From the NCBI GenBank assembly GCA_002380425.1, contig DFUR01000048.1, positions 2,890 through 66,889 on the forward strand: a DNA stretch of 64,000 nucleotides. The letters are read 5' to 3'. The notes under the pieces are model-generated. The model was not told the DNA's origin. It made no database searches and worked only from the letters and a program-made list of their open reading frames with translations. The position numbers and the translations under genes were made by a program. Shown in pieces: positions 43,798 through 59,484 of the stretch. How positions within the stretch are numbered: the first letter of the stretch is position 1; each line of letters begins with the position of its first letter. This DNA comes from Bacteroidales bacterium UBA4181 (GTDB lineage: Bacteria > Bacteroidota > Bacteroidia > Bacteroidales > UBA4181).

Positions 43798-43835
43798 CGG
43801 CCGGATTCCTGAATATCCGGCCGTAACTTTTTTTT
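43798..43835 (+). terminator. Rho-independent terminator after gltD
   Basis: Perfect 9-bp stem CGGCCGGAT/ATCCGGCCG with an 8-nt loop, then a T9 run. A second 7-bp hairpin (43756-43783) overlaps the stop codon. Confidence 0.75.
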
Positions 43836-43890: not shown

Positions 43891-43898
43891 TAAGTTTG
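43891..43898 (+). promoter_or_regulatory. Candidate -7 promoter box (TAAGTTTG) for the ABC/RND operon
   Basis: TAnnTTTG match in the AT-rich spacer, about 130 nt upstream of the proposed GTG start. Confidence 0.3.
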
Positions 43899-44028
43899 CA
43901 TCACCTGCGAAAATGTTTAAGGTGTTGGCGTTTTTGTAGTACCTTGTATTGCATAGTAATTTATTTTTCTAACTTTGAGGCTGGCTCTGCTGGTGTCAGA
44001 AGTGGAGAAATCAGTAACAATTATTGCG

Positions 44029-44919
44029 GTGAGTATTATTATTGAGGGTTTGACCAAAACCTATCCGAACGGAAATCATGCCCTTAAAGGGATTAACCTC
44101 CAAATTCCCCCCGGAATGTTTGGCTTGCTTGGCCCCAACGGGGCTGGAAAGTCGACGCTGATCCGGATTCTTGTAGCACTTATGGAACCTACAGAGGGAA
44201 AGGTTACCATGTTTGGGCATGACCTGCGCACTCAGAAACAGGAAATCAGGAAGATTCTGGGCTATCTGCCACAGGACTTCCGGTTTTTTGCCCGGTACAA
44301 AACTTATGAATTTCTCGACTATGCTGCCCGCCTTTCGGGGATGAACGACAGCAGGAAGCGCAAATCAGCCGTGGACGCGATGCTGGAGCAGGTGGGGCTG
44401 TACGAGGCCAGGGACCGGTATGCTGCTCGCCTGTCGGGTGGTATGAAGCGTCGCCTCGGTATTGCCCAGGCTTTGATTCATGAACCCAAGATCATTATTG
44501 TGGATGAGCCCACAACGGGTCTGGACCCTGAGGAGCGGATTCGTTTCCGCAACCTGCTTTCGCAGGTGAGTGCCCGGGACGTGTCGATTATTTTGTCAAC
44601 CCACATTGTGGGGGATATCTCCAGCTCTTGTACTTCAATGGCCTTGCTCAACAAAGGCGAAATATCTTTCTTTGGTTCTCCTGAGGAGATGTTGCGCCGT
44701 GCCGAAGGCAAGGTTTGGCTGGTTCGGGTGAGCAACAAAGATTTCAAGGAACTGACCAACAAGTATCCGGTTATTTCTACCATCCCGATTGATGATGGCT
44801 GGGAGGTACAGGTTGTGGCCGAAAAGTTGGATGGTTTCCGTGGAGAGAACATCGTGCCCAATCTGGAGCATGCCTATGTGTATTTTATGGATGCACAGCT
44901 TAACCAGTGGGCTGTATAG
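44029..44919 (+). CDS. ABC transporter ATP-binding protein (NBD1, ABC-2/NatA-like with a C-terminal extension)
   Basis: Walker A GPNGAGKST, Q-loop LGYLPQ, signature LSGGMKRR, Walker B IIIVDEPTTGLD, H-loop STHI. The start is moved from the track's TTG (43975) to the in-frame GTG at 44029, giving (M)SIIIEGLTKTY. Confidence 0.85.
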   Translation: MSIIIEGLTKTYPNGNHALKGINLQIPPGMFGLLGPNGAGKSTLIRILVALMEPTEGKVTMFGHDLRTQKQEIRKILGYLPQDFRFFARYKTYEFLDYAARLSGMNDSRKRKSAVDAMLEQVGLYEARDRYAARLSGGMKRRLGIAQALIHEPKIIIVDEPTTGLDPEERIRFRNLLSQVSARDVSIILSTHIVGDISSSCTSMALLNKGEISFFGSPEEMLRRAEGKVWLVRVSNKDFKELTNKYPVISTIPIDDGWEVQVVAEKLDGFRGENIVPNLEHAYVYFMDAQLNQWAV

Positions 44920-44937
44920 CCGGAACAGATAATTCAG

Positions 44938-47900
44938 ATGTCTATGCTTGTTCTTCACAATATTCTCTCAGTCGCCAAATACGAAAGTAAACTGCTGGTT
45001 CGCAGCTGGTTCTTTAAAGTGTTTTCGACCATTGCGGTGCTGGTTGCATTTGGCTACAGCCTGGGTACACTCAGTGATGCCGGGTCCCCAACCTGGCTGC
45101 TCCGCGCCATCCCTTCGACGATTCCTTACGGGACGCTTATTCTGCTGAATGCCGCGCAGGCGGTGATTGCCATCTTTCTGTCCTCGGAGTTTATCAAGAG
45201 GGACAAGCAGTTGGATACCTCAGAGGTGTTTTATGTGCGTCCGCTCAGCAATGCCGAGTATGTCATCGGGAAAACGTGGGGCAATCTGAGGGTATTTCTG
45301 GGTCTGAATCTGGTGATCCTGCTTATTGCGCTGCTGTTTAATCTAACAGCCAGCAATACATACGTTGACTGGTCGTCCTATCTTGTCTATTTTCTGTTGA
45401 TTAGTGTCCCCACCCTGCTGTTCATCATGGGAATGTCTTTTTGCGCCATGCTGTTGCTGAACAATCAGGCACTCACCTTTGTGGTGATGCTGGGATATGT
45501 GGGCCTGACATTGTTTGTGATTGGCGAGTTGGTGTATCACCTGTTTGACTACATGGCTTTTAGTCTGCCTATGTTCCGTTCCACCATTGTGGGTTTCAGT
45601 GGAATGGAAGAGATTCTGGTGCACCGCGGTATGTATCTGGCTGCTGGAATCGGGTTTATCTGTCTGACGATTTATCTGTTCAAACGATTGCCCCATGCCC
45701 CTCAGAGAAGATTCTGGTGGCTTCTGGTTTCACTGGTGTTCCTGATGGGCAGCGTTTTCCTTGGGTTCCGCTATGTACAGCGTTATGCCTCTGATCTGGA
45801 ACACAGACAGGCCCTGATAGAGCTCAATGATCAGTACGGTGGACTTCCGGTGATGTCGGTTCTGGAGTACAAGATGGATGTGGAGCAGTTGTCGGATGGT
45901 ATTCACGTGCGTTCCCGGATGCTCGCCCGTGCTCTGGACAGTGCCCGGGTATTTGTGTTCACCCTGAACCCGTATCTGGATATTATCTCTGTGAACGCCC
46001 CTCAGGAGCAGGTGCAGATGAAACGGGAACAACAGATTGTTTTGCTCGAGTTCGGACGTGAGATTCCGCGGGGGGACACTCTTATGCTGGAAATGGAGTA
46101 TCGGGGGGGGATTGATCAGTTGCTGTGTTTCCTGGACATTCCTGAGAAGAATCTTTTGGATAAGAATCGGGACAATAACATCAATTTTGCCAAGAGATAC
46201 GCCTTTCACAAGCCGAACTATCTTTTGCTGACTCCTGAATCCTTTTGGTATCCCAGACCAGGGACTGCTTTCAGTACCCGATACACAGGATGGCAGCAGT
46301 CTTTCTTCAGCCATTTTGATGTTTCTGTAAAACCATTGCCCGGCCTGGTACCAGTATCTCAGGGGAAGGTGGATACGCTGTCCGACGGGCGGATTCATTT
46401 CCTTCCTGAGGCTCCGCTCACGGGCCTCTCACTGTCCATTGGTCAATACGACAAGTTGTCTTTCCGGATAGACAGTGTGGATATGGAGTATGCCGTTTAT
46501 TATTTCAAGGGGCATGACTTTTTCACCCGGGGGCTGGATAGTATCAAGAAGGAGATTCCGGGCATCATCCATGAGCGCCGTTTGTCTCTGGAGCGGGACC
46601 TGAAACTTACTTATCCATTCAGGCGCTTTACCCTGGTGGAGGTCCCCGGCCAGTTTGCTGCCTATGCCAGGTCCTGGACTCAGGCACAGGAATGGACCCA
46701 GCCCGAGATGGTTTTTATTCCCGAGATGGCCTATGCCATGAGAGATGCAGAATTTGAACAGCAGGTGAAAATGCGCAGCAGGTTTATGCGGGAGCAGCGT
46801 TCCCTGCAGGATCGTCAGCGGGATGTGCTGAACAACTTTCTATTCAATTTTCAACGAATCAACGGGCGGCCCAACTTCCAGAGGAGCCGGGGTCAGACAT
46901 CCATTCAGCAGACGCCCAATCCATGGTATCAGTTTCCTCAGTTCTACGATTTTACATTCAACCTGTATTCCATTCGCTGGCCTGTGGCCAACCGTCTGGT
47001 GGCATCCTATCTGCAGAACACCAATTCCGGTGTGAACCAATATCAGCGTTCCTTATCCGGGATGTCCCCTGACGAAGAAGCCAGTGTGCTCCTCCAGGAA
47101 CACCCCCTGAGCCGTCTTTTGGCGGATACTGCCTATCGGGACCGGGTGAGCGGTGTGGTTTCGCTCAAGGCCCGCCAACTCTTTGCTTATGGAGAATTGC
47201 TCAAGGGCGAGGAGGATTTCCGCACCGTGGTGTCGAATATTGTCAAGGGAAAACCCTTCCAGAATGTGCGTTTTGAGAGTTTTCTCGGTGAATTGCGTGA
47301 CTCCACAGGGGTGGATATTCTGGACCGGATGGATGCCTGGTTCAACGTGATACAGGTGCCTCGCTATATCATCGGAATCCCCAGAGCCACCCGGGTTCGG
47401 AATGCACAGGAAACCAGGTTTGAAGTAGTGGAACAGATCACCAACAGTTCCGATGTGGAGGGCATTGTTAAGATTTCCCTCCAGTATAGTGGTGGCTGGA
47501 GTGACTCCGAGACCTCCCTGATGTACCTGGCTCCCGGACAGACCAAGGAGATTGTCATGGTGTCCGAAACCGATCCCCGATCCATGGTGATTCAAACCTT
47601 GGTTTCCTTGAACCTGCCTGGCTATGTGGAGCACACATTCTCGCAAGTGGAGCGTCAGCAGCGCAGGGTTCGTGACACCGGACAGTTTGTGGTGCAGAAT
47701 TCGGCTTTGTATGTTCCCGAAGGAGAAATTGTGGTGGATAATGAGGATGAGGACCTGTTCACGGTTACCACGCCCGATGTTACGGGTTTGCTTCAGACCT
47801 GGATGCAAAAAGCAGATGACAAAAAATCCAAGTATTCCGGTTATTCTTATTGGCGGGCTCCGATTCGCTGGACCCTGGTCACCAATTCGGGTTATTACGG

Positions 47901-48291
47901 GCAGTACGTTCGCTCTGCTCATATCATCCGTCCCGGAAATGGTTCCCAGGTGGCTACCTGGAGGGTTCCGCTGAAGGAGAGAGGACGCTATGACGTGTAC
48001 TATTATGCCTATAGAGAGCAGGAAGGCCGGCGCTTTGGCGGTGGTCCCGGTGGTCAGGGAGGACGAGGCGGATTTGGCGGCAGAGGACAACGAGGGGAAT
48101 ATAACCTGAGAATCCGTCAGGGCGCTACCCTGAACGAGCCTGCCTCCATTGAGTTTTGGGGCAGTGCCGGCTGGGTGCTTGTGGGAACCTATATTCTGGA
48201 GGCAGACACAGCGTACGTGGATCTTACCAATAAAGCAGAGATGAATATGAATATTGTCGCCGCCGATGCGGTCAAATTTGTGAAACGATAA
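44938..48291 (+). CDS. Giant ABC-2-type permease: ~7 TM helices (first ~280 aa) fused to an ~830-aa predicted periplasmic region
   Basis: Seven hydrophobic helices fall within aa 25-280. The rest is soluble with no HExxH motif. The C-terminal ~170 aa looks like a beta-sandwich ending ...IVAADAVKFVKR. An internal Gly/Arg tract is present. Confidence 0.7.
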   Translation: MSMLVLHNILSVAKYESKLLVRSWFFKVFSTIAVLVAFGYSLGTLSDAGSPTWLLRAIPSTIPYGTLILLNAAQAVIAIFLSSEFIKRDKQLDTSEVFYVRPLSNAEYVIGKTWGNLRVFLGLNLVILLIALLFNLTASNTYVDWSSYLVYFLLISVPTLLFIMGMSFCAMLLLNNQALTFVVMLGYVGLTLFVIGELVYHLFDYMAFSLPMFRSTIVGFSGMEEILVHRGMYLAAGIGFICLTIYLFKRLPHAPQRRFWWLLVSLVFLMGSVFLGFRYVQRYASDLEHRQALIELNDQYGGLPVMSVLEYKMDVEQLSDGIHVRSRMLARALDSARVFVFTLNPYLDIISVNAPQEQVQMKREQQIVLLEFGREIPRGDTLMLEMEYRGGIDQLLCFLDIPEKNLLDKNRDNNINFAKRYAFHKPNYLLLTPESFWYPRPGTAFSTRYTGWQQSFFSHFDVSVKPLPGLVPVSQGKVDTLSDGRIHFLPEAPLTGLSLSIGQYDKLSFRIDSVDMEYAVYYFKGHDFFTRGLDSIKKEIPGIIHERRLSLERDLKLTYPFRRFTLVEVPGQFAAYARSWTQAQEWTQPEMVFIPEMAYAMRDAEFEQQVKMRSRFMREQRSLQDRQRDVLNNFLFNFQRINGRPNFQRSRGQTSIQQTPNPWYQFPQFYDFTFNLYSIRWPVANRLVASYLQNTNSGVNQYQRSLSGMSPDEEASVLLQEHPLSRLLADTAYRDRVSGVVSLKARQLFAYGELLKGEEDFRTVVSNIVKGKPFQNVRFESFLGELRDSTGVDILDRMDAWFNVIQVPRYIIGIPRATRVRNAQETRFEVVEQITNSSDVEGIVKISLQYSGGWSDSETSLMYLAPGQTKEIVMVSETDPRSMVIQTLVSLNLPGYVEHTFSQVERQQRRVRDTGQFVVQNSALYVPEGEIVVDNEDEDLFTVTTPDVTGLLQTWMQKADDKKSKYSGYSYWRAPIRWTLVTNSGYYGQYVRSAHIIRPGNGSQVATWRVPLKERGRYDVYYYAYREQEGRRFGGGPGGQGGRGGFGGRGQRGEYNLRIRQGATLNEPASIEFWGSAGWVLVGTYILEADTAYVDLTNKAEMNMNIVAADAVKFVKR
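48025..48096 (+). repeat. Gly/Arg-rich low-complexity tract (GRRFGGGPGGQGGRGGFGGRGQRG) within the giant permease
   Basis: Direct translation of 48025-48096 in the ORF frame. Confidence 0.9.
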
Positions 48292-48305
48292 AGACACCTA
48301 CCTTT

Positions 48306-49793
48306 ATGAAGAAAATCTGGTTAATTATGATGTGTTTTCTGGGCTGCACCGGTTTTGCTCAGGGCCAAACGGTGATCACCCTGGAAAAAGCTATGGAGAT
48401 TGCGGCTGAACACAGCCCCTCTATCCGGAGGGTCCGGCTCAACCTTGACAGGACGCGTTACAACCTGCAGGCTCAGAATGCTGCTTTGAAGTCAAGCTTC
48501 TCTATGTCTGTGAACCCGCTTTCCTATTCCCAGTCAAGGCGTTTCGATGAGCGGATTTCTACATGGTACACCAATAAGTCTATGTCTTCCAGCGGTACTT
48601 TCCAGATATCCCAGCCTATTCTCTTGACAGATGGAACGATATCTCTGGTGAACCGTTTTAGCTGGCAGGATAATGAGTCGGACCAGGGTGGAATCACCTC
48701 CAACAACAAAGCATTCACGAACAATCTGAACCTGCAGCTCACCCAGCCCCTGTTCACGTACAACACCCGTAAAATGGAACTCAAGGAGCTGGAGTTTGAC
48801 TATGAGAATGCACACCTGAATTTTGCAGTCCAGATGTTGAATCTGGAGCGTCAGGTTTCTCAGTTGTTTTACAATGTGTACATGGCGCAGATGAATCTCG
48901 ATATTGCCCGTGAGGAGTTGAACAATGCCGAACAAAATTTCGAGATTATCAAGAACAAGGTGGAAGCCGACTTGTCGGCCCGTGAGGAATTGTATCAGGC
49001 GGAGGTCAATATTGCTACCTCCCGGTCCTCGTTCCAGAACAGGGTGGTGTCCTTCGAGGAGGCAAAGGATATTTTTAAACTCAACCTGGGAATGGATCTG
49101 GATGAAGATATTGTCATTTCTGCCAACGTAGAGGCCAGCCCTGTTCCGGTGGATGAGAAACTGGCCCTGGAAAATGCACTTCGTTCCCGGATTGAGTTGC
49201 GCCAGCGGGAAATCACCTACGAGAATTCGGTGTTCCAGATGATTCGGGTGAAGGCTCAGAATGAGTTTCGGGGCAATCTGAATCTTTCGGTGGGGATTAT
49301 CGGGGACAACCGTACGATTGGGGATATCTATCAGAATCCTACGCAAAACCCTTCGGTGGCTCTGACCTTTAATGTGCCCATTTTCGACTGGGGTGCCAAG
49401 AAAGCCCGGATCAAGGCTCAGGAGGCTACCATGGCCAGCAATGAGATTGATGCCGAACAGGAGCGTAAAGAAATCATCCTGAATGTGCGTCAGGTATTCC
49501 GGAATTTGCAGAATCAGCTGACGCAGATTGATATTGCCAGTCAGAACGTACGCAATGCACAGCTCACCTATGACCTCAATCAGGAGCGGTATCGCAACGG
49601 TGATCTCCGGGGTTTGGATATGAATCAATATCAGACCCAGCTTTCCAGTCGCAAAATCGCTCATGCACAGGCTTTGATCAACTACAAACTGGAGTTGCTC
49701 AATATGAAGATTCAGTCGATGTACGACTTCGAAACCAATACCCCTCTGGTTCCCTCCGAGTTGGTCCAGAAGGGAGAAATCAACCGCAATTAA
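48306..49793 (+). CDS. TolC-family outer membrane efflux protein
   Basis: Signal peptide, two OEP repeats with long coiled helices, typical LEKAMEIAAEHSPSIR start; 495 aa. Confidence 0.9.
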   Translation: MKKIWLIMMCFLGCTGFAQGQTVITLEKAMEIAAEHSPSIRRVRLNLDRTRYNLQAQNAALKSSFSMSVNPLSYSQSRRFDERISTWYTNKSMSSSGTFQISQPILLTDGTISLVNRFSWQDNESDQGGITSNNKAFTNNLNLQLTQPLFTYNTRKMELKELEFDYENAHLNFAVQMLNLERQVSQLFYNVYMAQMNLDIAREELNNAEQNFEIIKNKVEADLSAREELYQAEVNIATSRSSFQNRVVSFEEAKDIFKLNLGMDLDEDIVISANVEASPVPVDEKLALENALRSRIELRQREITYENSVFQMIRVKAQNEFRGNLNLSVGIIGDNRTIGDIYQNPTQNPSVALTFNVPIFDWGAKKARIKAQEATMASNEIDAEQERKEIILNVRQVFRNLQNQLTQIDIASQNVRNAQLTYDLNQERYRNGDLRGLDMNQYQTQLSSRKIAHAQALINYKLELLNMKIQSMYDFETNTPLVPSELVQKGEINRN

Positions 49794-49801
49794 TTATCAT
49801 T

Positions 49802-50878
49802 ATGAAGCTCTTAAGTAATATTCCCATGAAATCATTCATCCCGGCACTCCTCATCCTGGCAGGCGCCCTGGTTTCCTGCAACAACAATTTTCAGCAGGTT
49901 CAGACAGACATTGCAGCCCCGGTTTCGGTTTCTGAAATCAAGAAGGGTACGATACATCAGCTGGTCAATACCACAGGAACTGTGTTTGCCCGCGCCGAAG
50001 TCCAGTTGTCTTCGGAGATGGCTGGCCGGTATTCTCTGCAGGTGAACCCGTCCACCGGTAAGCTATACAAAATGGGCGACCGGGTGAAGAAAGGTCAGGT
50101 GATTGCTCGTTTCGAGGATCAGGAGTTTGTCAACGGACTCGGTCTGGATGCCAAGAAGCTTAACCTCGAGATTGTTAAGCAGACACAGGAGAAGCAGGCA
50201 TCCCTGTACGAGAAAGGTGGCGTGACCCTGAGTGAACTGCGCAATGCCGAGGTGTCCCTCACCAACGCCCAGCTCAGTTATGACAATGCATTGCTTCAGG
50301 CGCAACGTATGGAAGTTAAGGCTACCATTGACGGGGTGATTACCGATCTGCCCTATTATACGCAGGGAGCACGTGTGAATCAGAACAGTCTGGTTGTGGC
50401 TATCATGGACTATTCCAAAATGTACATGGAAATCAACCTCCCTGAAAGTGTCATTTCTACCATCAAGGTAGGTCAGGATGCCCGGGTGACACACTACACC
50501 CTCCCAGAAGACACTCTGAGTGGGGTGATTGATGAACTTTCCCCGGCAATCAGTGCGGAGACCCGGACATTCAAGGGCCGTCTGGTCATAGCTAATCCCG
50601 ACCTGCTGCTTCGTCCCGGTATGTTTGTCAAATCGGATATAGTGGTGGCTACCGCAAGTGAGGTGGTCCTGATTCCCAAGGAAGTCATCAGTACTACCCG
50701 GAACCGGAAATCGGTGTACGTTGTGGAGAACAACACTGCTATTCAAAAGAGGATCACCACAGGTTTGGAAGATGAGTTGAATGTTGAGGTACTCACTGGG
50801 TTGAATGCAGGGGAAAGCCTTGTTACCAGGGGCTTTGAGTCTTTGCGCGAGGGCGCCAAGGTTAAAGTGATTAACTAA
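49802..50878 (+). CDS. Efflux RND periplasmic adaptor (MFP/HlyD family) lipoprotein
   Basis: Lipobox LAGALVSC plus barrel-sandwich/hairpin motifs (TGTVFARAEVQLSSEMAGR, ATIDGVITD, RPGMFV). Confidence 0.9.
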   Translation: MKLLSNIPMKSFIPALLILAGALVSCNNNFQQVQTDIAAPVSVSEIKKGTIHQLVNTTGTVFARAEVQLSSEMAGRYSLQVNPSTGKLYKMGDRVKKGQVIARFEDQEFVNGLGLDAKKLNLEIVKQTQEKQASLYEKGGVTLSELRNAEVSLTNAQLSYDNALLQAQRMEVKATIDGVITDLPYYTQGARVNQNSLVVAIMDYSKMYMEINLPESVISTIKVGQDARVTHYTLPEDTLSGVIDELSPAISAETRTFKGRLVIANPDLLLRPGMFVKSDIVVATASEVVLIPKEVISTTRNRKSVYVVENNTAIQKRITTGLEDELNVEVLTGLNAGESLVTRGFESLREGAKVKVIN

Positions 50879-50885
50879 CCGGGAT

Positions 50886-53800
50886 ATGAGAAAGGTTGTA
50901 CAATTTGCCGTGAACAATCCCGTCACGATCACTATGATCGTGCTGGCGGTATTGCTCCTGGGCTTTATCTCCTATGATAAGTTGGGTATAGATTTGCTAC
51001 CCAACCTAAATAACCCCAGACTGTTCGTGGAGATCAAGGCCGGTGAAAGCCCTCCCGAGGAGATTGAATCACAGTATGTCCAGAACATTGAGGCGTTGGC
51101 CATCCGTCAGCGCGATGTGGTGAAGGTGTCTTCCATTGTTCGCGCCGGTGCTGCTCAGATCATGGTTGAGTTTGCCTGGAACAAGGATATGGACGAGGCT
51201 TTCCTGGATTTACAGAAGGCTTTGAATAATGCCTCGGCTGGACTGGATGAGTTGAATATTACCCAGCATGATCCCAATATGTCCCCCGTTGTGCTGGTTT
51301 CCATGAGTCATGCCGAAATCAGGGATATGGCAGAGCTGCGTAAAGTGGCTGAGAGCTATGTCCGCAATGAGTTGATTCGTATTGAGGGAATTGCTGATGT
51401 GCAACTCTCCGGTGAAGAGGTTACCGACCTGGTGATTGAAACAGATCCCTACCGTCTGAAGGCGTTCAACCTGACAATGGATGAACTGGCTTCGCGTATT
51501 GAAAGCGCCAACCGGAATCTCACGGGAGGGCGTGTGAGTGAGTACGGAGTGCAGTATATTGTCAAGGGGGTGGGTTTGTTAACCGACACGAAGGATTTTG
51601 ATAACCTTATTGTGGGTTACCGTGCCGTGCAGGCTGGAACTACAACCGCTCAGGCTGCCGGAGGGCAGAATATGGCGCCCGTTTTTCTGCGTGAGGTGGC
51701 CAATGTGCGTTTTGAGAACAAGCGCCCGGAAAGCATTGTCCGGATGAACGGTCAGCGGTGCATTGGTTTGTCTGTTTACAAGGAAACCCGCTACAACACG
51801 GTGCAGGCGGTCAACGAAGTGGTTGCTGAACTCGCCAATATCTCCAAGGCCTTACCCGGTTATTCGTTCAATGTGGTCACCAACCAGGGAGCGTTTATCA
51901 ACAATGCCATCGGTGAAGTGAAGGATACCGCGGTGCTGGGGATTGTTCTGGCGGTACTGGTACTCTTTGTATTCCTCCGGAGGGTGGGCACTACCCTGAT
52001 TATCAGTGTTGCTATTCCCGTTTCGATTGTGGCTACATTCAACCTGATGTATTTTAATGACCTCACTCTGAATATTATGACCCTGGGTGGTCTGGCGTTG
52101 GGGGCTGGTATGCTGGTGGATAATGCCATTGTGGTCATCGAGAATATTGTCCGGAATCACGAACGGGGGTTACCTCCGCAGGAGGCCGCTGTCACCGGTG
52201 GTCACGAGGTATCCGGAGCGGTGATTTCGTCCACGTTGACCACCATTGTGGTCTTTCTGCCCATTGTTTACCTCCACGGGGCTTCCGGGGAGTTGTTCAA
52301 GGATCAGGCCTGGACGGTTGCTTTTTCCCTGTTGTCTTCCCTGGTTGTGGCACTGTTGGTGATACCCACCCTGTATTATCGGGTGTACAAGTCCAAACAC
52401 CACAATAGTACGGAGCAAAAAACAGTTCATCTCAAGGGCTACGGTCAGTTTGTGAAACGGATTCTGCCTTATCGATGGCCGGTAATCTTTATCGCTTTGG
52501 CCTTGATGGCTGTGACAGCGTTGATTGTGCCTTCTATCGGTACGGAATTTATGCCTAAGGCTGAATCCGAGTCCCTGAATATCTCCATCAAGTTGCCCGA
52601 GGGAAGCCGCCTGGAGCGCACCCAGGGCGTTGTGGAAACCATGGAGCAGTTGTTGAAATCAACGGTGGGGGACAGTATGGATATATACTCCCACATTGGT
52701 CCCAACAGCGGAACGGTTAACTCAGTATTTGAAGGGGAGCATACAGCTCTGATCCGGGTGCATTTTTTTGGGAGCAGCGGAGCTGCTCAGCGGGTGATTG
52801 CCGCTTTCTCTGAGTATGCGAACAATGTGGAAGGCTTGCAGATTTCTTTCAAACAGGATGATTCTGCCCTCAGTTCCTTACTTGGGACCGAATCAGCCCC
52901 TGTGGTTGTGGAAATCAAGGGAGAGGATCTGGATAAACTTGAGGAAATTGCCGGAGTCGTCCGGCAGCGTATGGACAGCATTCAGGGCCTGTACAATGTC
53001 ACCTCTTCGATTGAGGACGGAGCTCCCGAAGTTGAGATTTTGTTAGACAGGACCCGGACCGGTATGGAGAACCTCAGCCTTTCTGCTGTGGTGGGGCAGG
53101 TGCAGCAGCAACTTACCGGTCGTGAGAGCGGACAGTTGGATTATTCCGGTGAGATGCGGGATATCATCATTCGTGTTCCCGAGAAAGATCTGGCTTCGCT
53201 CCCCGGGATGATCATCAGGGTGGGACAGCGGGAATATCGTCTGGAAGAGTTGGCACAGATACGCACATCTGTGGCTCCGGGAGAGATCTTCAGGAGGAAC
53301 CAGAGCCGTATTGCCCAGATTTCTGCAGACCTTGCTTCTTCGGTGAGTTTGGGACAGATGGCTTCGAGGATAGAGCAGACCATGGAGGATATCGAGTTGC
53401 CTCCAAATTATCAGATTTCGGTAACCGGGCAGGAAGAGCAAAGGCGTGATGCCATGAGCAATCTGCTTTTTGCCCTGATGTTGTCCGTGGTGCTGGTGTA
53501 CATGGTGATGGCGTCCCAGTTTGAGTCCCTGTTGCATCCGTTCACCATTCTGTTGACGATTCCGCTGGCAGTGGTCGGAGCCATCCTTATGTTCTGGTTT
53601 ACCGGAACGACCATCAATATTATGGGTGTGATTGGTATGGTGATGCTGGTGGGGATTGCGGTCAATAATGCTATTATTCTGGTGGACCGAATCAATCAGA
53701 TCAAACGTACCGGAGTGGAACTTCCTGAAGCCATTGCGCAGGCGGCTCAGCAGCGTATTCGTCCCATTCTGATGACCAGTCTTACCACTATTCTGGCTCT

Positions 53801-53975
53801 TTTGCCACTGGCCCTTGGGGCAGGTGAGAGTGCGGAGTTGCGTTCTCCTATGGCCTTAGCTGTGATCGGAGGATTGTTCACATCTACGGCCCTTACTCTG
53901 GTTGTCATTCCCTGTGCCTATTCCCTGATGGAAGGCCTGAAGCGCTTATTTGTCAGAACACCCGCAGAGAATTAA
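50886..53975 (+). CDS. Efflux RND transporter permease (RND1, AcrB/SwrC-like)
   Basis: 1029 aa with 12-TM/2-loop architecture. TM4 motif GMLVDNAIVVIEN and TM10-11 motif GIAVNNAIILVD. Confidence 0.95.
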   Translation: MRKVVQFAVNNPVTITMIVLAVLLLGFISYDKLGIDLLPNLNNPRLFVEIKAGESPPEEIESQYVQNIEALAIRQRDVVKVSSIVRAGAAQIMVEFAWNKDMDEAFLDLQKALNNASAGLDELNITQHDPNMSPVVLVSMSHAEIRDMAELRKVAESYVRNELIRIEGIADVQLSGEEVTDLVIETDPYRLKAFNLTMDELASRIESANRNLTGGRVSEYGVQYIVKGVGLLTDTKDFDNLIVGYRAVQAGTTTAQAAGGQNMAPVFLREVANVRFENKRPESIVRMNGQRCIGLSVYKETRYNTVQAVNEVVAELANISKALPGYSFNVVTNQGAFINNAIGEVKDTAVLGIVLAVLVLFVFLRRVGTTLIISVAIPVSIVATFNLMYFNDLTLNIMTLGGLALGAGMLVDNAIVVIENIVRNHERGLPPQEAAVTGGHEVSGAVISSTLTTIVVFLPIVYLHGASGELFKDQAWTVAFSLLSSLVVALLVIPTLYYRVYKSKHHNSTEQKTVHLKGYGQFVKRILPYRWPVIFIALALMAVTALIVPSIGTEFMPKAESESLNISIKLPEGSRLERTQGVVETMEQLLKSTVGDSMDIYSHIGPNSGTVNSVFEGEHTALIRVHFFGSSGAAQRVIAAFSEYANNVEGLQISFKQDDSALSSLLGTESAPVVVEIKGEDLDKLEEIAGVVRQRMDSIQGLYNVTSSIEDGAPEVEILLDRTRTGMENLSLSAVVGQVQQQLTGRESGQLDYSGEMRDIIIRVPEKDLASLPGMIIRVGQREYRLEELAQIRTSVAPGEIFRRNQSRIAQISADLASSVSLGQMASRIEQTMEDIELPPNYQISVTGQEEQRRDAMSNLLFALMLSVVLVYMVMASQFESLLHPFTILLTIPLAVVGAILMFWFTGTTINIMGVIGMVMLVGIAVNNAIILVDRINQIKRTGVELPEAIAQAAQQRIRPILMTSLTTILALLPLALGAGESAELRSPMALAVIGGLFTSTALTLVVIPCAYSLMEGLKRLFVRTPAEN

Positions 53976-53985
53976 CACCGGACCC

Positions 53986-56900
53986 ATGAATGTTTTGATC
54001 AACAGAAAGGTAACCATTTTCATGCTGTTTCTGAGCATTACCCTGCTCGGGTATGTCTCATACAAACAGTTGAAAGTCGAGCTTCTCCCAAATGCGGAGC
54101 TGCCCATGCTGTACGTTCAGGTTAATGCCCGGACCGAGATGGATCCGGCCTACCTGGAATCGCAGGCGGTGATGTATCTTGAAGGCGTCATAACCACCAT
54201 GAGTGGTGTGGAAGAGGTGGAGTCGCTTATCAACACCCGGAACGCGACCATCACGGTTAGTTTCAAACAGAACGTCAATTTCAACTATATCTATCTGCAA
54301 CTGCAGGAGCGCATCAAGGAGGCTTCTGTGCAGCTTCCGGAGGAATTCACTGTGAACCTTTCCCGCGGGAATTCGGTGTCTATGACCAGCAATTTCATGT
54401 CCTTGCAGGTTCTGGGTTCCGGAGGAGTGGACCGGGTTCGTAGCTTGTTTGACGAGGAGGTGCTCGAGGATCTGGAAAATATCGAGGGGATTGCCGCTGT
54501 ATCTGTGTTTGGCGGCCGTCAGAAAACCATTGAGGTTCAGATGAACCGGGAAATGTGTGAGGCCCTGAACCTGACCCCTTCGCGTCTTCAGAGCATCATT
54601 ACTCAGAATAGTCAGGGACGTACCTATGTGGGCAATGCAGAGGAGAGTTTCCGTCAGTATTTTGTGTATGTTCAGTCGGAATACAAGCATGTGACCGATA
54701 TTGAAAATATCGTGGTTGCTCCCGGTCCTATTCTTCTCAAGGATGTGGCCAATGTGTTTTTTGATGTCAAGGATGAGACCAATATCAGCCGGGTCAACGG
54801 TAAAGAAGAAATCTCCGTTTCTCTGATCAATGATTCCCAGGCCAATATGATTGACCTCTCTGACAGGGTACTGGCAGCCATTGAACGGATCAACCAAAAG
54901 ATGAAACCCCTGGATGTGGAGTTGGTTGTGCAGAGCAACGCTGCTGAGGAGATTGAGGAAAACATCGGAAATATTGTTCAGACGGCTCTGTTAGGAGGGT
55001 TGCTCGCCATCTTTGTGCTCTGGGTGTTTCTCAGGAATCTCCGGCTGGTAGTGTTGATTGCTGTTTCGGTGCCCATCTCAATCTTTTCGGCCTATAATTT
55101 CTTTTACGCCTTTGGCGTTACCATCAACAGCCTCACCCTGATCGGGATGGCTCTGGCCGTGGGGATGCTGCTCGATTGCAGTATTGTTGTTCTGGAGAAT
55201 ATATACAGGCTGGCTTCCCAGGGAAATCCGCCGGATAAGGCGGTAACCCAGGGTACCCGGGAGGTATGGCGGTCTATCGTAGCTTCAACGCTCACTACTG
55301 TGGTGGTGTTTGCACCGTTCATTTTCTCGGACAACTATCTGATTGAACTTTTGGGCCTTCAGATAGGGGTGTCTATCATCTCCACTCTGGTTCTTGCCAT
55401 GTGTGTGTCGTTGTTGTTCACACCCATGCTTGCTCATTTGATTTTGTTGGGGCGCAGTCGCAGGAATGCCTTGTTTCAGACGGTATCCATTCGGCAGAAG
55501 GTTGTGCAGCGTTATTTGGTGATTCTCAAGGCCTGTATGAGGCGCCCTGTACCTACCATTCTGGGAGGAGTGATTTTGTTGGTTGTTTCCGTACTTCTGG
55601 CCCTTTCGGTGAGTATTACAAGTATGCGCCAGGTAGATACGGACCGCTTCAATATTTCCGTGCAACTGCGTCAGGGAACGACCCTTGAGGCTACCGATCA
55701 GGTGGTGCTTTCGTTGGAACAGTCCATTGACTCCATTGCCGAGATCAAGGATGTTGTATCCCGTATTCAGGAGGCTGAGGCGGTGATTACCGTGATTCTC
55801 AAAGAAGATTACGAAAAGATTGCCAAGCGCAGTATGTCGGTCATCCGTCAGGATGTGGAGGACCGTGTACGGACTGTGTCCTCTGCCGAAATCAATGTTT
55901 CTCAGGCTACCGGGGGCGGAGGCGGAGCTTCTGCAGGTGCTGTTTCCGGAATGATGAACCTCATGCGTCTGCTGGGTATCGGGGAAAACAGTGAGCGGAT
56001 TATCCTCAAAGGCAGAGATTTTGAACTCATGCAGTCCGTTGCTACCGATATCCGGTATTATCTGGATGAACTGGAGTCGGTACAGTATTCCCGGATTTCT
56101 TCCACTGGAAACCGGCCCGAAGTGCATCTTACCTTTGATCAGGAGTTGCTGAATCAGTATGGAATCACGCAAGCCAACCTGTCTTCAGAACTGGCCTCAG
56201 TGAGCAATGTGTCCTCTTCGGGTGCTCGTATGACATTGGGGGATGAAGAATACGATATTCTGATTCGTCAGTATTTGGAGGATGAGGAGGAGGAACAATC
56301 ACAGGCACAGACAAAAAACCTGACCGACTTAAAAAACACCATGATTCGCAGTCAATCGGGGGGGATTCATCAGCTCCAGAGTATTGCGGGGGTGAATATG
56401 GCCACGGGTAAATCCTCCATCAGGAGGTTGAATCAGGAAAAACTTATAGAGATTTTTTATTCGTTCCCTCAGGAAACACAGGAGTCTAAGGAATTGCTGG
56501 AGTCGTACCGTCTGGAGATCGACCAGCTCATTGCTGGCTATCCGTTGCCAGCGGGGATTGCCATTGAAGTGGTGCATGAAGAGGATCTCTTCGCTGATTT
56601 CAAGTTCCTGATTCTTGTTGCTTTTGTGTTGATCTACATGATCATGGCGGTGGTGTTCGAGTCCTTCTTTACCCCCTTCGTGCTGATGTTCTCTATCCCG
56701 CTGGCGGCCATCGGTTCGCTGCTGGCCCTGGTTGTTACCGGGAACAGCCTGCTGAGTGCCAATACGCTCATAGGGTTTATTATTCTGTTGGGTGTGGTGG
56801 TGAATAACGGGATTATTCTGATAGATTATTCCAATATTCTCCGTAGCAGGGGCTATCGCCGTACCCGTGCTCTGCTGACCTCGGGACTTGCCCGGTTGCG

Positions 56901-58686
56901 TCCTATTCTGATTACGTCCATCACTACCATTGTGGCCCTGCTGCCCATGGCCTTGGGTGAGAGCGGATATGCCGGGATGATAGGTGGTCCTTTTGCCGTA
57001 ACGGTGATTGGGGGGCTTGCCTGTTCATCGTTGCTCACCCTGATATTTGTGCCCACGGTGTATATCTCCCTGGAGAATGCGCTGGATTGGTACAAAACCC
57101 TGAGTGTGAAGATGAAGTTGTTCCATCTTTTGCTGTTCCTGTTCGGGGTGTATCTGATTGTCACACGGATTGAAGGTATTCTTTCCCAGGCTGGTTATCT
57201 GGTATTGCTTGCGGTGGTCATCCCTGCGGTTACGTTCTTTGTTCGTACCAGTCTGCGCAGAGCTGATACCAAATTGATCCCCGAGGAGGAGCCCATTCGT
57301 ATCACTATCAGTAATTTGGTGAAGATTTACGACCGTTCCGGAAGTTTCCTCCGTGAGTGGAAGGCCGGAGATGCACTTCGCGCCCGGCTGGGCCTGAAGG
57401 AAGAATACCACTCGCTGCGGGATTTTGGCAGTCTGGTGTGGCAGTTGCCTCTGCTGGGTTTCCTGATCTATTTTGCCTATTTCTATCTGGACCACAAGTT
57501 CTGGACCTATGTCCTTTCTTTTGTGGTGTTCGTGTTCGTCCGCACTCTTTGGGGAATGATGCGTTCGTGGCTGGAGTACCATCGTGGAACTCCAAAATGG
57601 CTGAATCGCCTGGATCGGATGGTCTTCTGGGGTGTGCCCCTGATTCTTACTGTGGTGATTTTCTCCAAATGGGACAATCCGGGTATGTCCACTCTGGCAG
57701 CCTTCTCATGGTTCCTGATGTTGGGTATCTACGCCACTTCCGATTATCTCTACTCCCGGGAAATCAATATTGACCGTATCGAAGGCCGTATGGCCGGTCT
57801 GCGCAGAGCTCTTGCGCGGTTGGTGAAGACCATTCCTGTTCTGGGCAAACGTCGTCAGCCCTTCAAAGCTCTCAAAGGGGTATCCTTTGAAATCAATACC
57901 GGTATGATTGGCTTGCTGGGCCCCAATGGTGCGGGCAAATCGACTTTTATGCGCATCATTTGCGGCATTCTGGACCAGAGTTACGGTAAAATATGGATCA
58001 ACGGATACGATACAGAACGCTACCGCGAGGAGTTGCAGTCACTAATCGGCTTCCTGCCTCAGGAGTTTGGTATGTATGAGCATATGAGCGCTGAGAGTTT
58101 TCTGGATTTTATGGCCATTCTCAAGGGGATCACCAATCCTGAAACCCGTGCACAACGCATTGAGTATGTCCTCAAATCGGTGCATATGTACGAGAAGAAG
58201 GATCATAAAATTTCTTCCTTCTCCGGTGGTATGAAACAACGAATTGGTATTGCACTGATTCTGCTTCATCTCCCCAGAATTCTTGTGGTGGATGAGCCCA
58301 CTGCCGGCCTGGACCCCAGAGAGCGTATCCGTTTCAGGAATCTGCTGGTCGAACTCAGCCGCGACAGGATTGTGATCTTTTCTACCCATATCATTGAGGA
58401 CATTGCCAGTTCGTGTAATCAGGTCGTGGTCATCAATAAGGGAGACCGGAAGTATTTCGGCAATCCTCGAGAGATGGTGCATCTGGCTTCGGGCAAGGTT
58501 TGGGTGTTTACGATGGACTTAGAGACCTTTGAAGCACTGCCCGATATGTCGCTGGTGGTTCATCATGTACAGGAAGGCAATCAGGTCAGGGTGCGTTATA
58601 TTTCGCGCACACAGCCTGCTCCGGGAGCGGTTCTGGTGGAACCAAACCTCGAAGATGCCTATTTGTGTTTACTGAAGAATATCTGA
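53986..58686 (+). CDS. Fusion protein: complete RND permease (RND2), 2 TM, then an ABC ATPase (NBD2) carrying a 4-TM insertion
   Basis: One uninterrupted frame of 1566 codons. RND motifs are GMLLDCSIVVLEN and GVVVNNGIILID. The C-terminal part has Walker A GPNGAGKST, Q-loop IGFLPQ, signature FSGGMKQR, Walker B ILVVDEPTAGLD and H-loop STHI. The start is set at the ATG at 53986, 10 nt after the RND1 stop. Confidence 0.85.
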   Translation: MNVLINRKVTIFMLFLSITLLGYVSYKQLKVELLPNAELPMLYVQVNARTEMDPAYLESQAVMYLEGVITTMSGVEEVESLINTRNATITVSFKQNVNFNYIYLQLQERIKEASVQLPEEFTVNLSRGNSVSMTSNFMSLQVLGSGGVDRVRSLFDEEVLEDLENIEGIAAVSVFGGRQKTIEVQMNREMCEALNLTPSRLQSIITQNSQGRTYVGNAEESFRQYFVYVQSEYKHVTDIENIVVAPGPILLKDVANVFFDVKDETNISRVNGKEEISVSLINDSQANMIDLSDRVLAAIERINQKMKPLDVELVVQSNAAEEIEENIGNIVQTALLGGLLAIFVLWVFLRNLRLVVLIAVSVPISIFSAYNFFYAFGVTINSLTLIGMALAVGMLLDCSIVVLENIYRLASQGNPPDKAVTQGTREVWRSIVASTLTTVVVFAPFIFSDNYLIELLGLQIGVSIISTLVLAMCVSLLFTPMLAHLILLGRSRRNALFQTVSIRQKVVQRYLVILKACMRRPVPTILGGVILLVVSVLLALSVSITSMRQVDTDRFNISVQLRQGTTLEATDQVVLSLEQSIDSIAEIKDVVSRIQEAEAVITVILKEDYEKIAKRSMSVIRQDVEDRVRTVSSAEINVSQATGGGGGASAGAVSGMMNLMRLLGIGENSERIILKGRDFELMQSVATDIRYYLDELESVQYSRISSTGNRPEVHLTFDQELLNQYGITQANLSSELASVSNVSSSGARMTLGDEEYDILIRQYLEDEEEEQSQAQTKNLTDLKNTMIRSQSGGIHQLQSIAGVNMATGKSSIRRLNQEKLIEIFYSFPQETQESKELLESYRLEIDQLIAGYPLPAGIAIEVVHEEDLFADFKFLILVAFVLIYMIMAVVFESFFTPFVLMFSIPLAAIGSLLALVVTGNSLLSANTLIGFIILLGVVVNNGIILIDYSNILRSRGYRRTRALLTSGLARLRPILITSITTIVALLPMALGESGYAGMIGGPFAVTVIGGLACSSLLTLIFVPTVYISLENALDWYKTLSVKMKLFHLLLFLFGVYLIVTRIEGILSQAGYLVLLAVVIPAVTFFVRTSLRRADTKLIPEEEPIRITISNLVKIYDRSGSFLREWKAGDALRARLGLKEEYHSLRDFGSLVWQLPLLGFLIYFAYFYLDHKFWTYVLSFVVFVFVRTLWGMMRSWLEYHRGTPKWLNRLDRMVFWGVPLILTVVIFSKWDNPGMSTLAAFSWFLMLGIYATSDYLYSREINIDRIEGRMAGLRRALARLVKTIPVLGKRRQPFKALKGVSFEINTGMIGLLGPNGAGKSTFMRIICGILDQSYGKIWINGYDTERYREELQSLIGFLPQEFGMYEHMSAESFLDFMAILKGITNPETRAQRIEYVLKSVHMYEKKDHKISSFSGGMKQRIGIALILLHLPRILVVDEPTAGLDPRERIRFRNLLVELSRDRIVIFSTHIIEDIASSCNQVVVINKGDRKYFGNPREMVHLASGKVWVFTMDLETFEALPDMSLVVHHVQEGNQVRVRYISRTQPAPGAVLVEPNLEDAYLCLLKNI
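57334..57864 (+). other. ~177-aa membrane insertion (4 predicted TM helices) between NBD2 strand beta-1 and the Walker A strand
   Basis: ITISNLVKIYD (matches NBD1 IIIEGLTKTYP) is separated from KALKGVSFEINTGMIGLLGPNGAGKST (matches NBD1 HALKGINLQIPPGMFGLLGPNGAGKST). The intervening segment contains LVWQLPLLGFLIYFAYFYL, FWTYVLSFVVFVFVRTLWGMM, MVFWGVPLILTVVIFS and LAAFSWFLMLGIYATSDYL. Confidence 0.75.
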
Positions 58687-58688
58687 GT

Positions 58689-59396
58689 ATGAAGAAGAAT
58701 CAATTATTTCAAATCCTGTTGCCCCTGATGAGGTACAATCTGAAGGTGATTTTTGCCGGGAAGTTTGTCTGGTTCTTTCTGGCTGCCCTTGGATTTTTTG
58801 TGTTCTTCATGATCAACAATGTCTGGCAGGGAAATCTGATCAATGAGGCACTGATGTACGAGATTCTGTTCTTCCCGGGGGTACTTCTTATTTTCTATCC
58901 CTCCGTTTATGGGATACAGAACGATGAAGATGCCCGTATTCTGGAAATCCTTTTCGGAATTCCCAATTATCGTTACAAGGTGTGGCTGTTTCGTCTCTTG
59001 ATGGTGTATCTGATCTTTTTTTGCTTTCTGGTGCTGTTTGCCTGGATCGGGACTTTCCTGCTGTTCCCAGTTCCCCAGTTTGAAATGGCCGGTCAGTTGA
59101 TGTTTCCCTTGTTGTTTCTGGGAAATATGGCCTTTATGATGTCCACCTGGGTGCGCAGCGGTAATGCGACGGCTGTCATCATGATTATCGTCGGGATCCT
59201 GATGGTCGTACTGACCAGTGCCTTTGGGCTGAAATGGTGGAACATTACCCTCAATCCGTTTGAGGTCCCCGAGAACTTGCATGTGGTTATCTGGGCCGGA
59301 TACCTGACTAAGAGCCGGATCTTTCTGGCTGTGGGCAGTGTGGTGTTCTTACTCATTGGTCTGCTCAATCTACAGAAACGGGAACGTTTTGTGTGA
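58689..59396 (+). CDS. Six-TM membrane protein, probable ABC-2-type permease partner
   Basis: 235 aa and very hydrophobic, with ~6 helices. The ATG lies 2 nt after the fusion gene's stop. Family assignment rests on context only. Confidence 0.6.
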   Translation: MKKNQLFQILLPLMRYNLKVIFAGKFVWFFLAALGFFVFFMINNVWQGNLINEALMYEILFFPGVLLIFYPSVYGIQNDEDARILEILFGIPNYRYKVWLFRLLMVYLIFFCFLVLFAWIGTFLLFPVPQFEMAGQLMFPLLFLGNMAFMMSTWVRSGNATAVIMIIVGILMVVLTSAFGLKWWNITLNPFEVPENLHVVIWAGYLTKSRIFLAVGSVVFLLIGLLNLQKRERFV

Positions 59397-59442
59397 TCCT
59401 TGACGGGGCATCCCTTTTTTGGTCCCGAGGTTATGCAATTTC

Positions 59443-59477
59443 GCACGAATTGTTTATATTTGTAAAACAATTCGTGC
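59443..59477. promoter_or_regulatory. Perfect 13-bp inverted repeat (GCACGAATTGTTT-N9-AAACAATTCGTGC) enclosing a TATATTTG -7 box; candidate operator
   Basis: The arms are at 59443-59455 and 59465-59477. The -7 box is at 59455-59462, 22 nt upstream of the ATG at 59485. Confidence 0.5.
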
Positions 59478-59484
59478 GTGTGCT

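Follow-up and report, generated by a model that had tools for sequence, protein, structure and literature searches.

A 64,000-nucleotide (nt) stretch of the Bacteroidales bacterium UBA4181 genome (contig DFUR01000048.1, positions 2,890 to 66,889 of the forward strand; hereafter the window) carries a seven-gene operon in which a permease of the resistance-nodulation-division (RND) superfamily is covalently fused to the ATPase of an ATP-binding cassette (ABC) transporter. The seven genes, at window positions 44029-59396 on the + strand, encode in order a first ABC nucleotide-binding domain (NBD1), a 1117-residue ABC-2-like permease (hereafter the big permease), a TolC-family outer membrane factor (OMF), a membrane fusion protein (MFP) lipoprotein, a first RND permease (RND1), the fusion of a second RND permease with a second nucleotide-binding domain (RND2-NBD2), and a 235-residue ABC-2-like permease (the small permease). 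The RND2-NBD2 fusion is genuine. We judge it likely that the ABC and RND proteins form a physically integrated complex, and assign a probability of about one half to the reading that all seven genes specify one composite envelope exporter, inherited as a module, in which the ABC part is functionally coupled to the RND part.

With the best-supported starts (NBD1, GTG 44029; big permease, 44938; OMF, 48306; MFP, 49802; RND1, 50886; fusion, ATG 53986; small permease, ATG 58689), of which GTG 44029, ATG 53986 and ATG 58689 were chosen as best supported by homologs, the six intergenic gaps measure 18, 14, 8, 7, 10 and 2 nt. An initial annotation, made from the sequence alone, had described seven + strand genes spaced 2-18 nt apart, and its spacing, gene order and domain assignments all agree with these gaps and with the Pfam and NCBIfam matches reported below. 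The opposite strand of the operon region shows no competing long open reading frames (ORFs) with family matches, and terminator-like sites within the operon show no excess over shuffled sequence. The short gaps and the lack of an internal terminator excess are compatible with a single transcript, and the seven genes appear to fit one transcription unit.

The RND2-NBD2 fusion and its conservation

The fusion ORF matches the Pfam families ACR_tran (residues 14-1041) and ABC_tran (residues 1308-1452) in a single frame. Starting from ATG 53986, 10 nt past the RND1 stop codon, the product is 1566 residues long, which fits its homologs better than the start at ATG 54022 used by metagenome gene calls (1554 residues); the latter cuts the first transmembrane (TM) helix, TM1, and loses a conserved 'INRKVTIF' segment. 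This start codon is the sole gene-calling issue of the fusion. Its segments are as follows (AF2, AlphaFold2; pLDDT, predicted local distance difference test; helix and strand numbers are those of the AF2 model).

53986-57072 (+): RND2 domain, a full 12-TM RND permease (ACR_tran, 4.1e-158; 29% identity to RND1)
57106-57255 (+): two-TM hairpin right after TM12 of RND2 (AF2 helices 13-33 and 37-62; hydropathy; found in 33/33 family members)
57301-57330 (+): displaced strand beta1 and A-loop tyrosine of NBD2 (ITISNLVKIY; strand 78-87, pLDDT ~88)
57415-57756 (+): four-TM insertion between beta1 and beta2 of NBD2 (AF2 helices 116-139, 143-172, 176-200 and 204-229)
57862-58686 (+): NBD2 core and C-terminal domain of the NBD1 type (ABC_tran, 1.1e-28; 41% identity to NBD1)

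Following TM12 of the RND domain, the polypeptide runs through two hydrophobic helices, a '..I.NL.KIY' block, an amphipathic 'REW' stretch, four hydrophobic helices and the remainder of the NBD, which in both the 33- and the 39-sequence alignment opens with 'AL.GVS..I..GM.GLLGPNGAGK'. The '..I.NL.KIY' block is kept in 33/33 family members, with its K and Y invariant in the 39-sequence alignment, and in the window protein (ITISNLVKIY) it aligns with the N-terminus of NBD1 ('IIIEGLTKTY'). The AF2 model of the 538-residue C-terminal part (mean pLDDT 86.2) contains the same elements, with the NBD starting at residue 265. In this model, four TM helices inserted into the beta1-beta2 hairpin interrupt NBD2, giving six predicted anchoring helices in all. 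The Walker A K, Q-loop Q, SGG, Walker B DE and H-loop H of NBD2 are invariant in 39/39 sequences, and the best Foldseek matches to the NBD2 model are TM_1403 (4yer), an ABC ATPase with a C-terminal domain, followed by ABCA4, ABCA7 and ABCA3.

The presence and topology of the linker helices are conserved across the 33 members, their sequence poorly so. No profile similarity was detected between the six helices and either permease of the operon (hhalign probability below 1%), and this result, together with their poor conservation, led us to reject a cryptic ABC-2 transmembrane domain (TMD). The linker helices look like a tether or an interface rather than a transport path.

The source organism is an uncultured Bacteroidales of a bioreactor metagenome, and the identical fusion protein occurs on at least 12 contigs from several metagenome samples. 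More than 100 full-length homologs of 1550-1570 residues carry both ACR_tran and ABC_tran, including proteins from Parabacteroides gordonii isolate genomes, and these homologs are annotated only as 'efflux RND transporter permease subunit'. In a profile-free, exhaustive search of representative proteins clustered at 50% identity, with fusion residues 900-1578 as the query, a full RND domain and an NBD were found together in 43 clusters among the best 150 representatives, 30 of them with a linker of 270-313 residues and 13 with a short linker. The named members of the family come from Bacteroidota, candidate division KSB1 and Gammaproteobacteria, to which an Acidobacteriota contig can be added.

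The short-linker proteins define a second class of RND::ABC-ATPase fusions, 1390-1500 residues long (L014:9420-13757, L015:10001-14338 and L016:601-4878; proteins P0185 and P0156, and also P0152, P0158, P0163, P0168, P0169, P0179 and P0186). Their linker is mostly soluble, with a 'WRW..LFW' motif after the RND domain and a 25-residue insert, 'IPS.RY..G.RP..G..AL', in place of the four-TM insertion. In the two neighborhoods examined, the short-linker fusion gene stands alone; genes for an MFP, another RND protein or an ABC permease are absent from its vicinity. Representatives of 526-649 residues mostly start in mid-protein and resemble fragments at contig ends. Two of them, P0136 (526 residues) and P0212 (539 residues), have a Met at the first linker helix followed by beta1, the four-TM insertion and the NBD, and might be natural split versions, that is, membrane-anchored NBDs without an RND domain, rather than fragments.

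Loci encoding the fusion were collected by exact-protein look-ups and by a metagenome scan with the linker alignment, a scan of a genome collection with the C-terminal part of the fusion yielding only two relevant loci; taxon labels were taken from record names. The P. gordonii locus has the same seven genes in the same order between unrelated flanks, with a fusion 58% identical to that of the window. In a Rikenellaceae metagenome-assembled genome, the part within reach reads big permease (3' end)-OMF-MFP-RND1-fusion-small permease, and searches starting from the big permease recovered NBD1-big permease-OMF-MFP-RND1-fusion in a P. johnsonii-like gut scaffold and in Prolixibacteraceae. Beyond the Bacteroidota, in a small cross-phylum sample of four loci plus one unclassified genome, a gammaproteobacterial contig, the Acidobacteriota contig and the unclassified genome share the order NBD1-big permease-MFP-RND1-fusion-small permease, without an OMF gene and with fusions 28-34% identical. 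The OMF gene lies within the cluster in Bacteroidales loci only.

The metagenome scan returned 80 loci, mostly from human gut, and the system is common in human-gut Parabacteroides. The big permease, OMF, MFP, RND1 and RND2 genes occur in this order in all 52 metagenome loci with at least 9.8 kb of upstream sequence, and the small permease gene lies 3' of the fusion in 64 of the 65 with enough downstream sequence. Every locus of sufficient length keeps a neighboring pair of paralogous RND genes together with a single MFP gene. From locus to locus, the divergence of all components runs in parallel, and the flanking genes vary. Routine unlinking of the ABC and RND parts in related genomes, which the initial annotation had named as evidence that would speak against a single machine, was not found; the two parts are stably linked.

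A KSB1 contig (L011:1-11429) carries only MFP-RND1-fusion-small permease, preceded by a gene of the LOG/lysine-decarboxylase family, and is the sole locus where NBD1 and the big permease do not precede the other four genes. Either NBD1 and the big permease are encoded at another site of that genome or the half made up of NBD2 and the small permease can function by itself.

The best-surviving alternative to a composite exporter is that an independent ABC-2 exporter and a two-paralog RND pump are co-expressed and share an adaptor and a channel, with the fusion providing only co-localization or equal dosage and no substrate passing between them. The single MFP and OMF genes, the weak sequence conservation of the linker helices and the KSB1 locus without the NBD1/big-permease pair would suit this reading, as would the established ability of YbhGFSR (ABC-2 plus MFP) and MdtABC (RND plus MFP) of E. 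coli each to function alone. It has to contend, however, with a fusion that has been kept, together with its ~280-residue linker architecture, down to ~28% identity and across at least four phyla, and with the strict gene order in 52/52 loci, both of which are hard to explain by co-regulation, which the operon already gives. We consider independent pumps unlikely.

The ABC subunits and the periplasmic domain

The ABC components comprise two NBDs and two dissimilar permeases, whose features other than NBD2 are listed here.

44029-44919 (+): NBD1, ABC ATPase with a ~90-residue C-terminal domain, 296 residues (ABC_tran, 2.2e-33; the ORF reaches TTG 43975)
44938-45837 (+): membrane part of the big permease, residues 1-300 (hydropathy; AF2 helices from 3-22 to 255-300)
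45853-47352 (+): predicted periplasmic pseudo-M1-aminopeptidase region of the big permease, residues ~306-805 (AF2/Foldseek; motif check)
47365-48291 (+): C-terminal beta-sandwich and Golvesin_C domain of the big permease (Golvesin_C, 3.8e-09, above cut-off; all-beta structure)
58689-59396 (+): small permease, 235 residues with ~6 TM helices, a probable divergent ABC-2-type TMD (Pfam matches of orthologs; hhalign)

NBD1 and NBD2 are 41% identical over 270 residues, including the C-terminal extension, and are thus the paralogs with a shared extension that the initial annotation had recognized. Walker A, the signature, Walker B with its catalytic E and the H-loop are present in NBD1 and conserved in its orthologs; with the catalytic motifs intact in NBD2 as well, both ATP sites should be active. 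The nearest solved sequences of NBD1 are ABCA1, ABCA7, ABCA4 and ABCA3 (E ~1e-61), followed by the next family at ~1e-41. Scores against DrrA (TIGR01188; NBD1 194.7 and NBD2 167.1 bits, cut-off 312.45) and GldA (TIGR03522; 181.0 and 177.5 bits, cut-off 402.6) stay below the cut-offs, which places both NBDs in the same broad clade as DrrA and GldA but not, by these profiles, among their members.

The N-terminus of the big permease consists of an amphipathic helix, six TM helices of an ABC-2-like core and an extra seventh TM helix. Its AF2 topology is compatible with a six-TM ABC-2 core preceded by an N-terminal amphipathic helix; its match to ABC2_membrane_2 is weak (20.2 bits versus a cut-off of 27.2), and some orthologs carry PF12679. 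The small permease of the window has no Pfam match, and the small-permease profile matched nothing in the PDB, while among its orthologs ABC2_membrane_2 was detected in 2/8 (2.7e-07) and ABC2_membrane_3 in one. The small-permease family and the TMD of the big permease match weakly in hhalign (probability 64%, E 6.5e-05, 217 columns), so that the two permeases appear to be paralogous. The initial annotation had spoken of two ABC half-systems. Because the NBDs are paralogous and the TMDs apparently so, a single heterodimeric ABC-2 transporter is the simpler description, and the ABC components probably constitute one such transporter (type V, ABCA/DrrA-like).

The seventh TM helix of the big permease places its remaining ~840 residues in the periplasm. 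The AF2 model of this protein (pLDDT 78.9; predicted template modeling score, pTM, 0.73) resembles IRAP, ERAP1, ERAP2 and APN in Foldseek searches (E 1e-15 to 1e-13 over ~640 columns), and two big-permease orthologs match Pfam Peptidase_M1. The predicted model thus has the overall fold of M1 peptidases but neither the HEXXH-(18)-E zinc site nor GXMEN: HEXXH and GXMEN motifs are absent from the window protein and from 40 homologs, the most distant included. The absence of both motifs rules out an active peptidase, and the domain is, as modeled, a catalytically dead M1-aminopeptidase fold, or pseudo-peptidase. The large size of the periplasmic domain had earlier been taken to hint at a macromolecular, glycan or lipid cargo; the M1 fold points at least as much to a binding basket for peptide-like or amphipathic ligands as to a glycan cargo.

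Within the Golvesin_C domain, residues 1028-1051 (48019-48090) form a Gly/Arg-rich low-complexity insertion, GRRFGGGPGGQGGRGGFGGRGQRG, with a pLDDT below 50; the consensus of a 36-sequence alignment contains no comparable Gly/Arg-rich stretch. Homologs of the big permease (P0299, P0329, P0374, P0382, P0392 and others) carry public names such as 'xanthan lyase', 'golvesin C-terminal-like domain-containing protein' and 'multi-copper enzyme maturation permease', which appear to have been propagated from the Golvesin_C domain and COG1277. We do not adopt 'xanthan lyase': no lyase domain was detected, only Golvesin_C and the weak ABC-2 match, and the one paper containing both terms is unrelated.

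A different role for the ABC part would be that of a mechanotransducer like MacB, LolCDE or FtsEX, in which ATP hydrolysis in the cytoplasm moves the pseudo-M1 basket; the basket would then either capture a periplasmic or outer-leaflet ligand and force it into the entrance of the RND protein, or gate or assemble the duct of RND, MFP and OMF. Such a role would make sense of the ~840-residue extracytoplasmic domain borne on an extra TM helix, of a fold kept while its catalytic residues were lost, as in binding modules, and of the capacity of M1 aminopeptidases to open and close around long peptides, the top structural matches including open and closed ERAP1 and IRAP structures. The TMDs, on the other hand, resemble ABC-2 (type V) and not the type VII domains of FtsX and MacB: FtsX was matched by none of the seven proteins, and MacB_PCD by one small-permease ortholog only, at a non-significant E of 0.1. 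The NBDs, moreover, have their nearest relatives among the ABCA lipid exporters, proteins that do transport lipid, either through the bilayer or out of it. A mechanotransducing ABC part strikes us as improbable.

The RND pair and a proposed composite exporter

The remaining three proteins are assigned to their superfamilies by strong profile matches.

48306-49793 (+): OMF, TolC family, 495 residues with an N-terminal signal peptide (OEP, 8.3e-42, three matched stretches)
49802-50878 (+): MFP lipoprotein, 358 residues, lipobox LVSC (TIGR01730 RND_mfp; HlyD_D23)
50886-53975 (+): RND1, stand-alone RND permease, 1029 residues (ACR_tran, 8.8e-214)

The OMF scores 143.6 bits against OEP (cut-off 22) and stays below the cut-offs of TIGR01844 and TIGR01845. 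The MFP matches TIGR01730 over residues 41-356 with 183.5 bits (cut-off 94.9). ACR_tran is matched over its full length by both RND1 (712.7 bits, positions 2-1020 of 1021) and RND2 (528.4 bits, positions 3-1020 of 1021), and the two are 29% identical end to end. These Pfam and NCBIfam results uphold the earlier view of one MFP gene, one OMF gene and two paralogous RND permeases reminiscent of MdtBC-type pairs. The best solved relatives of RND1 are MdtB and then ZneA. RND1 and RND2 are nevertheless not orthologs of MdtB or MdtC, their equivalog scores being 357.7/398.4 and 257.1/237.0 bits, respectively, against cut-offs of 1584/1774, and both stay below the 1250-bit cut-off of NCBIfam RND_permease_1/RND_permease_2 (594.1 and 455.9 bits). 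Beyond the superfamily level, scores or motifs fall short for every narrower membership considered (RND subfamily, MdtB/MdtC, DrrA/GldA, MacB and active M1), the MFP scoring above the cut-off of TIGR01730.

RND1 has 'VDN' in TM4, 'VNN' in TM10 and 'RIRPILMT' in TM11. The equivalents of AcrB D407 and R971 (the TM4 Asp and TM11 Arg) are invariant in RND1 and RND2 members, including the 33 members of the fusion family. The AcrB quartet is incomplete in both proteins, which have N, C or S at the D408 position and N at that of K940. ZneA, a pump driven by the proton-motive force (PMF), has the same replacement pattern, making proton coupling of RND1 and RND2 plausible. A loss of proton coupling through the absence of D408 and K940 was not accepted, given the ZneA pattern and the invariant Asp and Arg.

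The same residues bear on the possibility that the fused NBD, dimerized with NBD1 or with itself, drives or regulates the RND cycle and so replaces or supplements the PMF. Missing D408 and K940 equivalents in both RND proteins (TM4 'DN/DC', TM10 'VNN') could be read in this way, as could the solitary RND::NBD fusions without an ABC permease, where the NBD has no other target. Yet the TM4 Asp and TM11 Arg are invariant, ZneA with its matching pattern is proton-driven, RND1 is unfused, and dedicated ABC-2-like permeases are conserved beside both NBDs. An ATP-powered RND cycle in this operon is, in our estimate, quite improbable. The last alternative, an assembly, frameshift or gene-calling artefact in an ordinary juxtaposition of pumps, is ruled out by the identical protein on at least 12 contigs and by hundreds of homologs of the same architecture, those of P. 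gordonii isolates included.

For a composite exporter, the following arrangement can be proposed. NBD1 with the 1117-residue permease and NBD2 with the 235-residue permease would form the two ABC halves. NBD2, which shares a polypeptide with RND2 and is anchored in the membrane through six additional TM helices, would be the tether between the ABC and RND parts, and RND2 would assemble with RND1 into a mixed trimer, as in MdtB2C, docked to the single MFP and the OMF; the latter is encoded in the cluster in Bacteroidales, whereas in other phyla its gene would lie at a separate genomic site. By hydrolyzing ATP, NBD1 and NBD2 would let the ABC-2 dimer pull an amphipathic, membrane-embedded substrate from the inner membrane or cytoplasm; this substrate might be lipid-like, a lipopeptide or antimicrobial peptide, or a detergent resembling bile. 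The pseudo-M1 basket of the big permease would then receive or guide it, and the adjacent RND trimer would take it up from the outer leaflet or periplasm and expel it through the MFP/OMF duct at the expense of the PMF. Type V ABC exporters pull lipids or lipid-linked molecules from the bilayer, and RND pumps capture their substrates from the outer leaflet or periplasm; it is this analogy that suggests serial action, ABC first and RND second. We infer the subunit stoichiometry, hand-off direction, dual energy use and substrate of this scheme, and its substrate class (a membrane-active amphiphile, a lipopeptide or peptide, or a lipid) is a guess.

A single machine running on both ATP and PMF had been suggested in the initial annotation. 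The covalent linkage of an RND protomer to an ABC ATPase supports that idea, and the co-inheritance of the genes adds to it; energization, hand-off and cargo stay at the level of conjecture. Several points weigh against a composite exporter. A C2 ABC dimer next to a C3 RND trimer is an unproven geometry, and the proposed heterodimer, mixed RND trimer and hand-off are each deduced indirectly. ABC-2 membership of the small permease is based on its orthologs and on a 64% hhalign probability. The poorly conserved sequence of the linker helices is as easily reconciled with a passive tether as with a functional interface. In KSB1, which lacks an adjoining NBD1/big-permease pair, the NBD2/small-permease half may work alone, and the solitary short-linker fusions, with an NBD on an RND protein and no ABC permease, favor an NBD acting on the RND domain itself. 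Finally, the 80 metagenome loci correspond to 16 lineages at 95% nucleotide identity.

Taken together, these data describe a variant of tripartite efflux, with a substantial chance of its being a new dual-energy transporter class. In its fullest form, which we advance only tentatively, the latter proposal holds that an ABC exporter and an RND pump would be united in one complex by a covalent RND-NBD fusion whose NBD is threaded into the membrane, that one cargo would be handled first by ATP, for its extraction from the inner membrane, and next by the PMF, for its expulsion across the outer membrane, and that the solitary short-linker fusions would belong to a related branch whose RND protein is itself the target of ATP action.

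Operon limits and relation to known systems

The operon is delimited by the following elements.

43797-43834 (+): intrinsic terminator of gltD, upstream edge of the unit (10-bp stem with 7 GC pairs, 43797-43824, then a T-run)
43891-43977 (+): AT-rich leader with candidate Bacteroidetes-type -7 promoter boxes (TAAGTTTG, 43891-43898; TAACTTTG, 43970-43977; regular expression TAnnTTTG)
59442-59478 (no strand assigned): perfect 14-nt inverted repeat, downstream edge (CGCACGAATTGTTT / AAACAATTCGTGCG, 9-nt loop)

Upstream of the operon, gltB and gltD are identified by Pfam, and the terminator closes the unit on that side; the perfect repeat closes it on the other. Both boundaries had been proposed in the initial annotation, whose start coordinate, 43891, is not a start codon but the first base of TAAGTTTG. 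Both TAAGTTTG and TAACTTTG match TAnnTTTG, the -7 promoter box consensus of Bacteroidetes/Bacteroides; in a sigma-70 promoter scan, a model ill-suited to Bacteroidetes, matches were not above shuffled expectation. TTG 43975, the NBD1 start in the mechanical ORF list, falls within the second box (TAACTTTG, 43970-43977), which makes GTG 44029 the more likely translation start.

At the downstream edge, a -7-like box, TATATTTG, extends over the loop and the adjoining 3' end of the left arm of the inverted repeat, which lies just upstream of a 96-residue coiled-coil-like ORF and zapA; positions 59442-59478 are a probable candidate promoter/operator of this next unit (the 96-residue ORF and the cell-division gene zapA). 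Directly upstream of the operon runs a set of nitrogen-assimilation genes (34535-43762: asnA, encoding aspartate-ammonia ligase; type III glutamine synthetase; gltB; gltD), with a strong terminator but no regulator gene between this set and the pump operon. Further downstream, the zapA-rny intergenic region (~240 nt) contains, at 60107-60306 (+), a segment closed by a long stem, CCCGCAUAGCU...AGCUAUGCGGG, with a U-run behind it. This segment matches 6S-Flavo RNA weakly (26.5 bits versus a gathering score of 85, E 0.066; folding z-score -1.9) and could be a divergent 6S-like RNA, its place 3' of zapA being reminiscent of E. coli ssrS.

Tripartite efflux systems are conventionally divided into RND and ABC pumps, each class with an energy source of its own. 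Full-text literature searches returned no description of an RND-ABC fusion, a membrane-inserted NBD or this operon, and nothing relevant on M1/ABC permeases or on efflux operons of Parabacteroides; in a 2021 review of tripartite efflux, no RND-ABC fusion is mentioned within the first 300,000 of ~750,000 characters. A conserved covalent hybrid that has permeases, an adaptor and a second RND paralog of its own would offer a natural test case for how substrates of the cytoplasm or inner leaflet reach RND pumps that capture from the periplasm or outer leaflet. Structurally, both the membrane-inserted NBD and the ABC-2-like permease with its predicted dead M1-peptidase basket are novel, and public annotations conceal this architecture. 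In gut Parabacteroides, the system could matter for tolerance of bile, antimicrobial peptides or drugs, or for the export of envelope lipids.

Among known systems, MdtABC-TolC of E. coli shares two adjacent paralogous RND genes, one MFP gene and a TolC-family channel with the operon, whereas MdtB retains equivalents of D408 and K940, no ATPase is attached to MdtC and ABC genes are absent from MdtABC. In E. coli, YbhGFSR sets ABC-2-type ATPase(s) and two different ABC-2 permeases beside an MFP, an arrangement like that of the operon, but its YbhF is a soluble tandem NBD, and it has no RND protein, fusion, membrane-inserted NBD or large periplasmic domain. The eukaryotic ABCA1, ABCA3, ABCA4 and ABCA7 resemble the operon proteins in that a small C-terminal domain follows the NBD and that a large domain lies outside the cytoplasm, and their type V TMD fold is a probable further resemblance; they are single polypeptides without an RND partner, with extracellular domains between TM1 and TM2, whereas the periplasmic domain of the operon follows an extra seventh TM helix and is predicted to have an M1-peptidase fold. 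MacAB-TolC also combines an ATP-driven inner-membrane component bearing a periplasmic domain with an MFP and TolC, but MacB is a type VII protein with an FtsX-type four-TM domain and MacB_PCD, neither of which was detected in the operon proteins. ERAP1, IRAP and aminopeptidase N share the overall multi-domain fold of the modeled periplasmic region, which differs from these M1 aminopeptidases in lacking HEXXH and GXMEN (41 sequences) and in being anchored to an ABC-2-like TMD. The closest conceptual parallel for two energy sources is the Sec holotranslocon (SecYEG-SecA plus SecDF). Its proteins are separate, its ATPase is SecA rather than an ABC protein and it has no MFP/OMF duct, but it joins the PMF-driven RND-superfamily protein SecDF to an ATPase on the same cargo and is, to our knowledge, the one well-known case of such cooperation.

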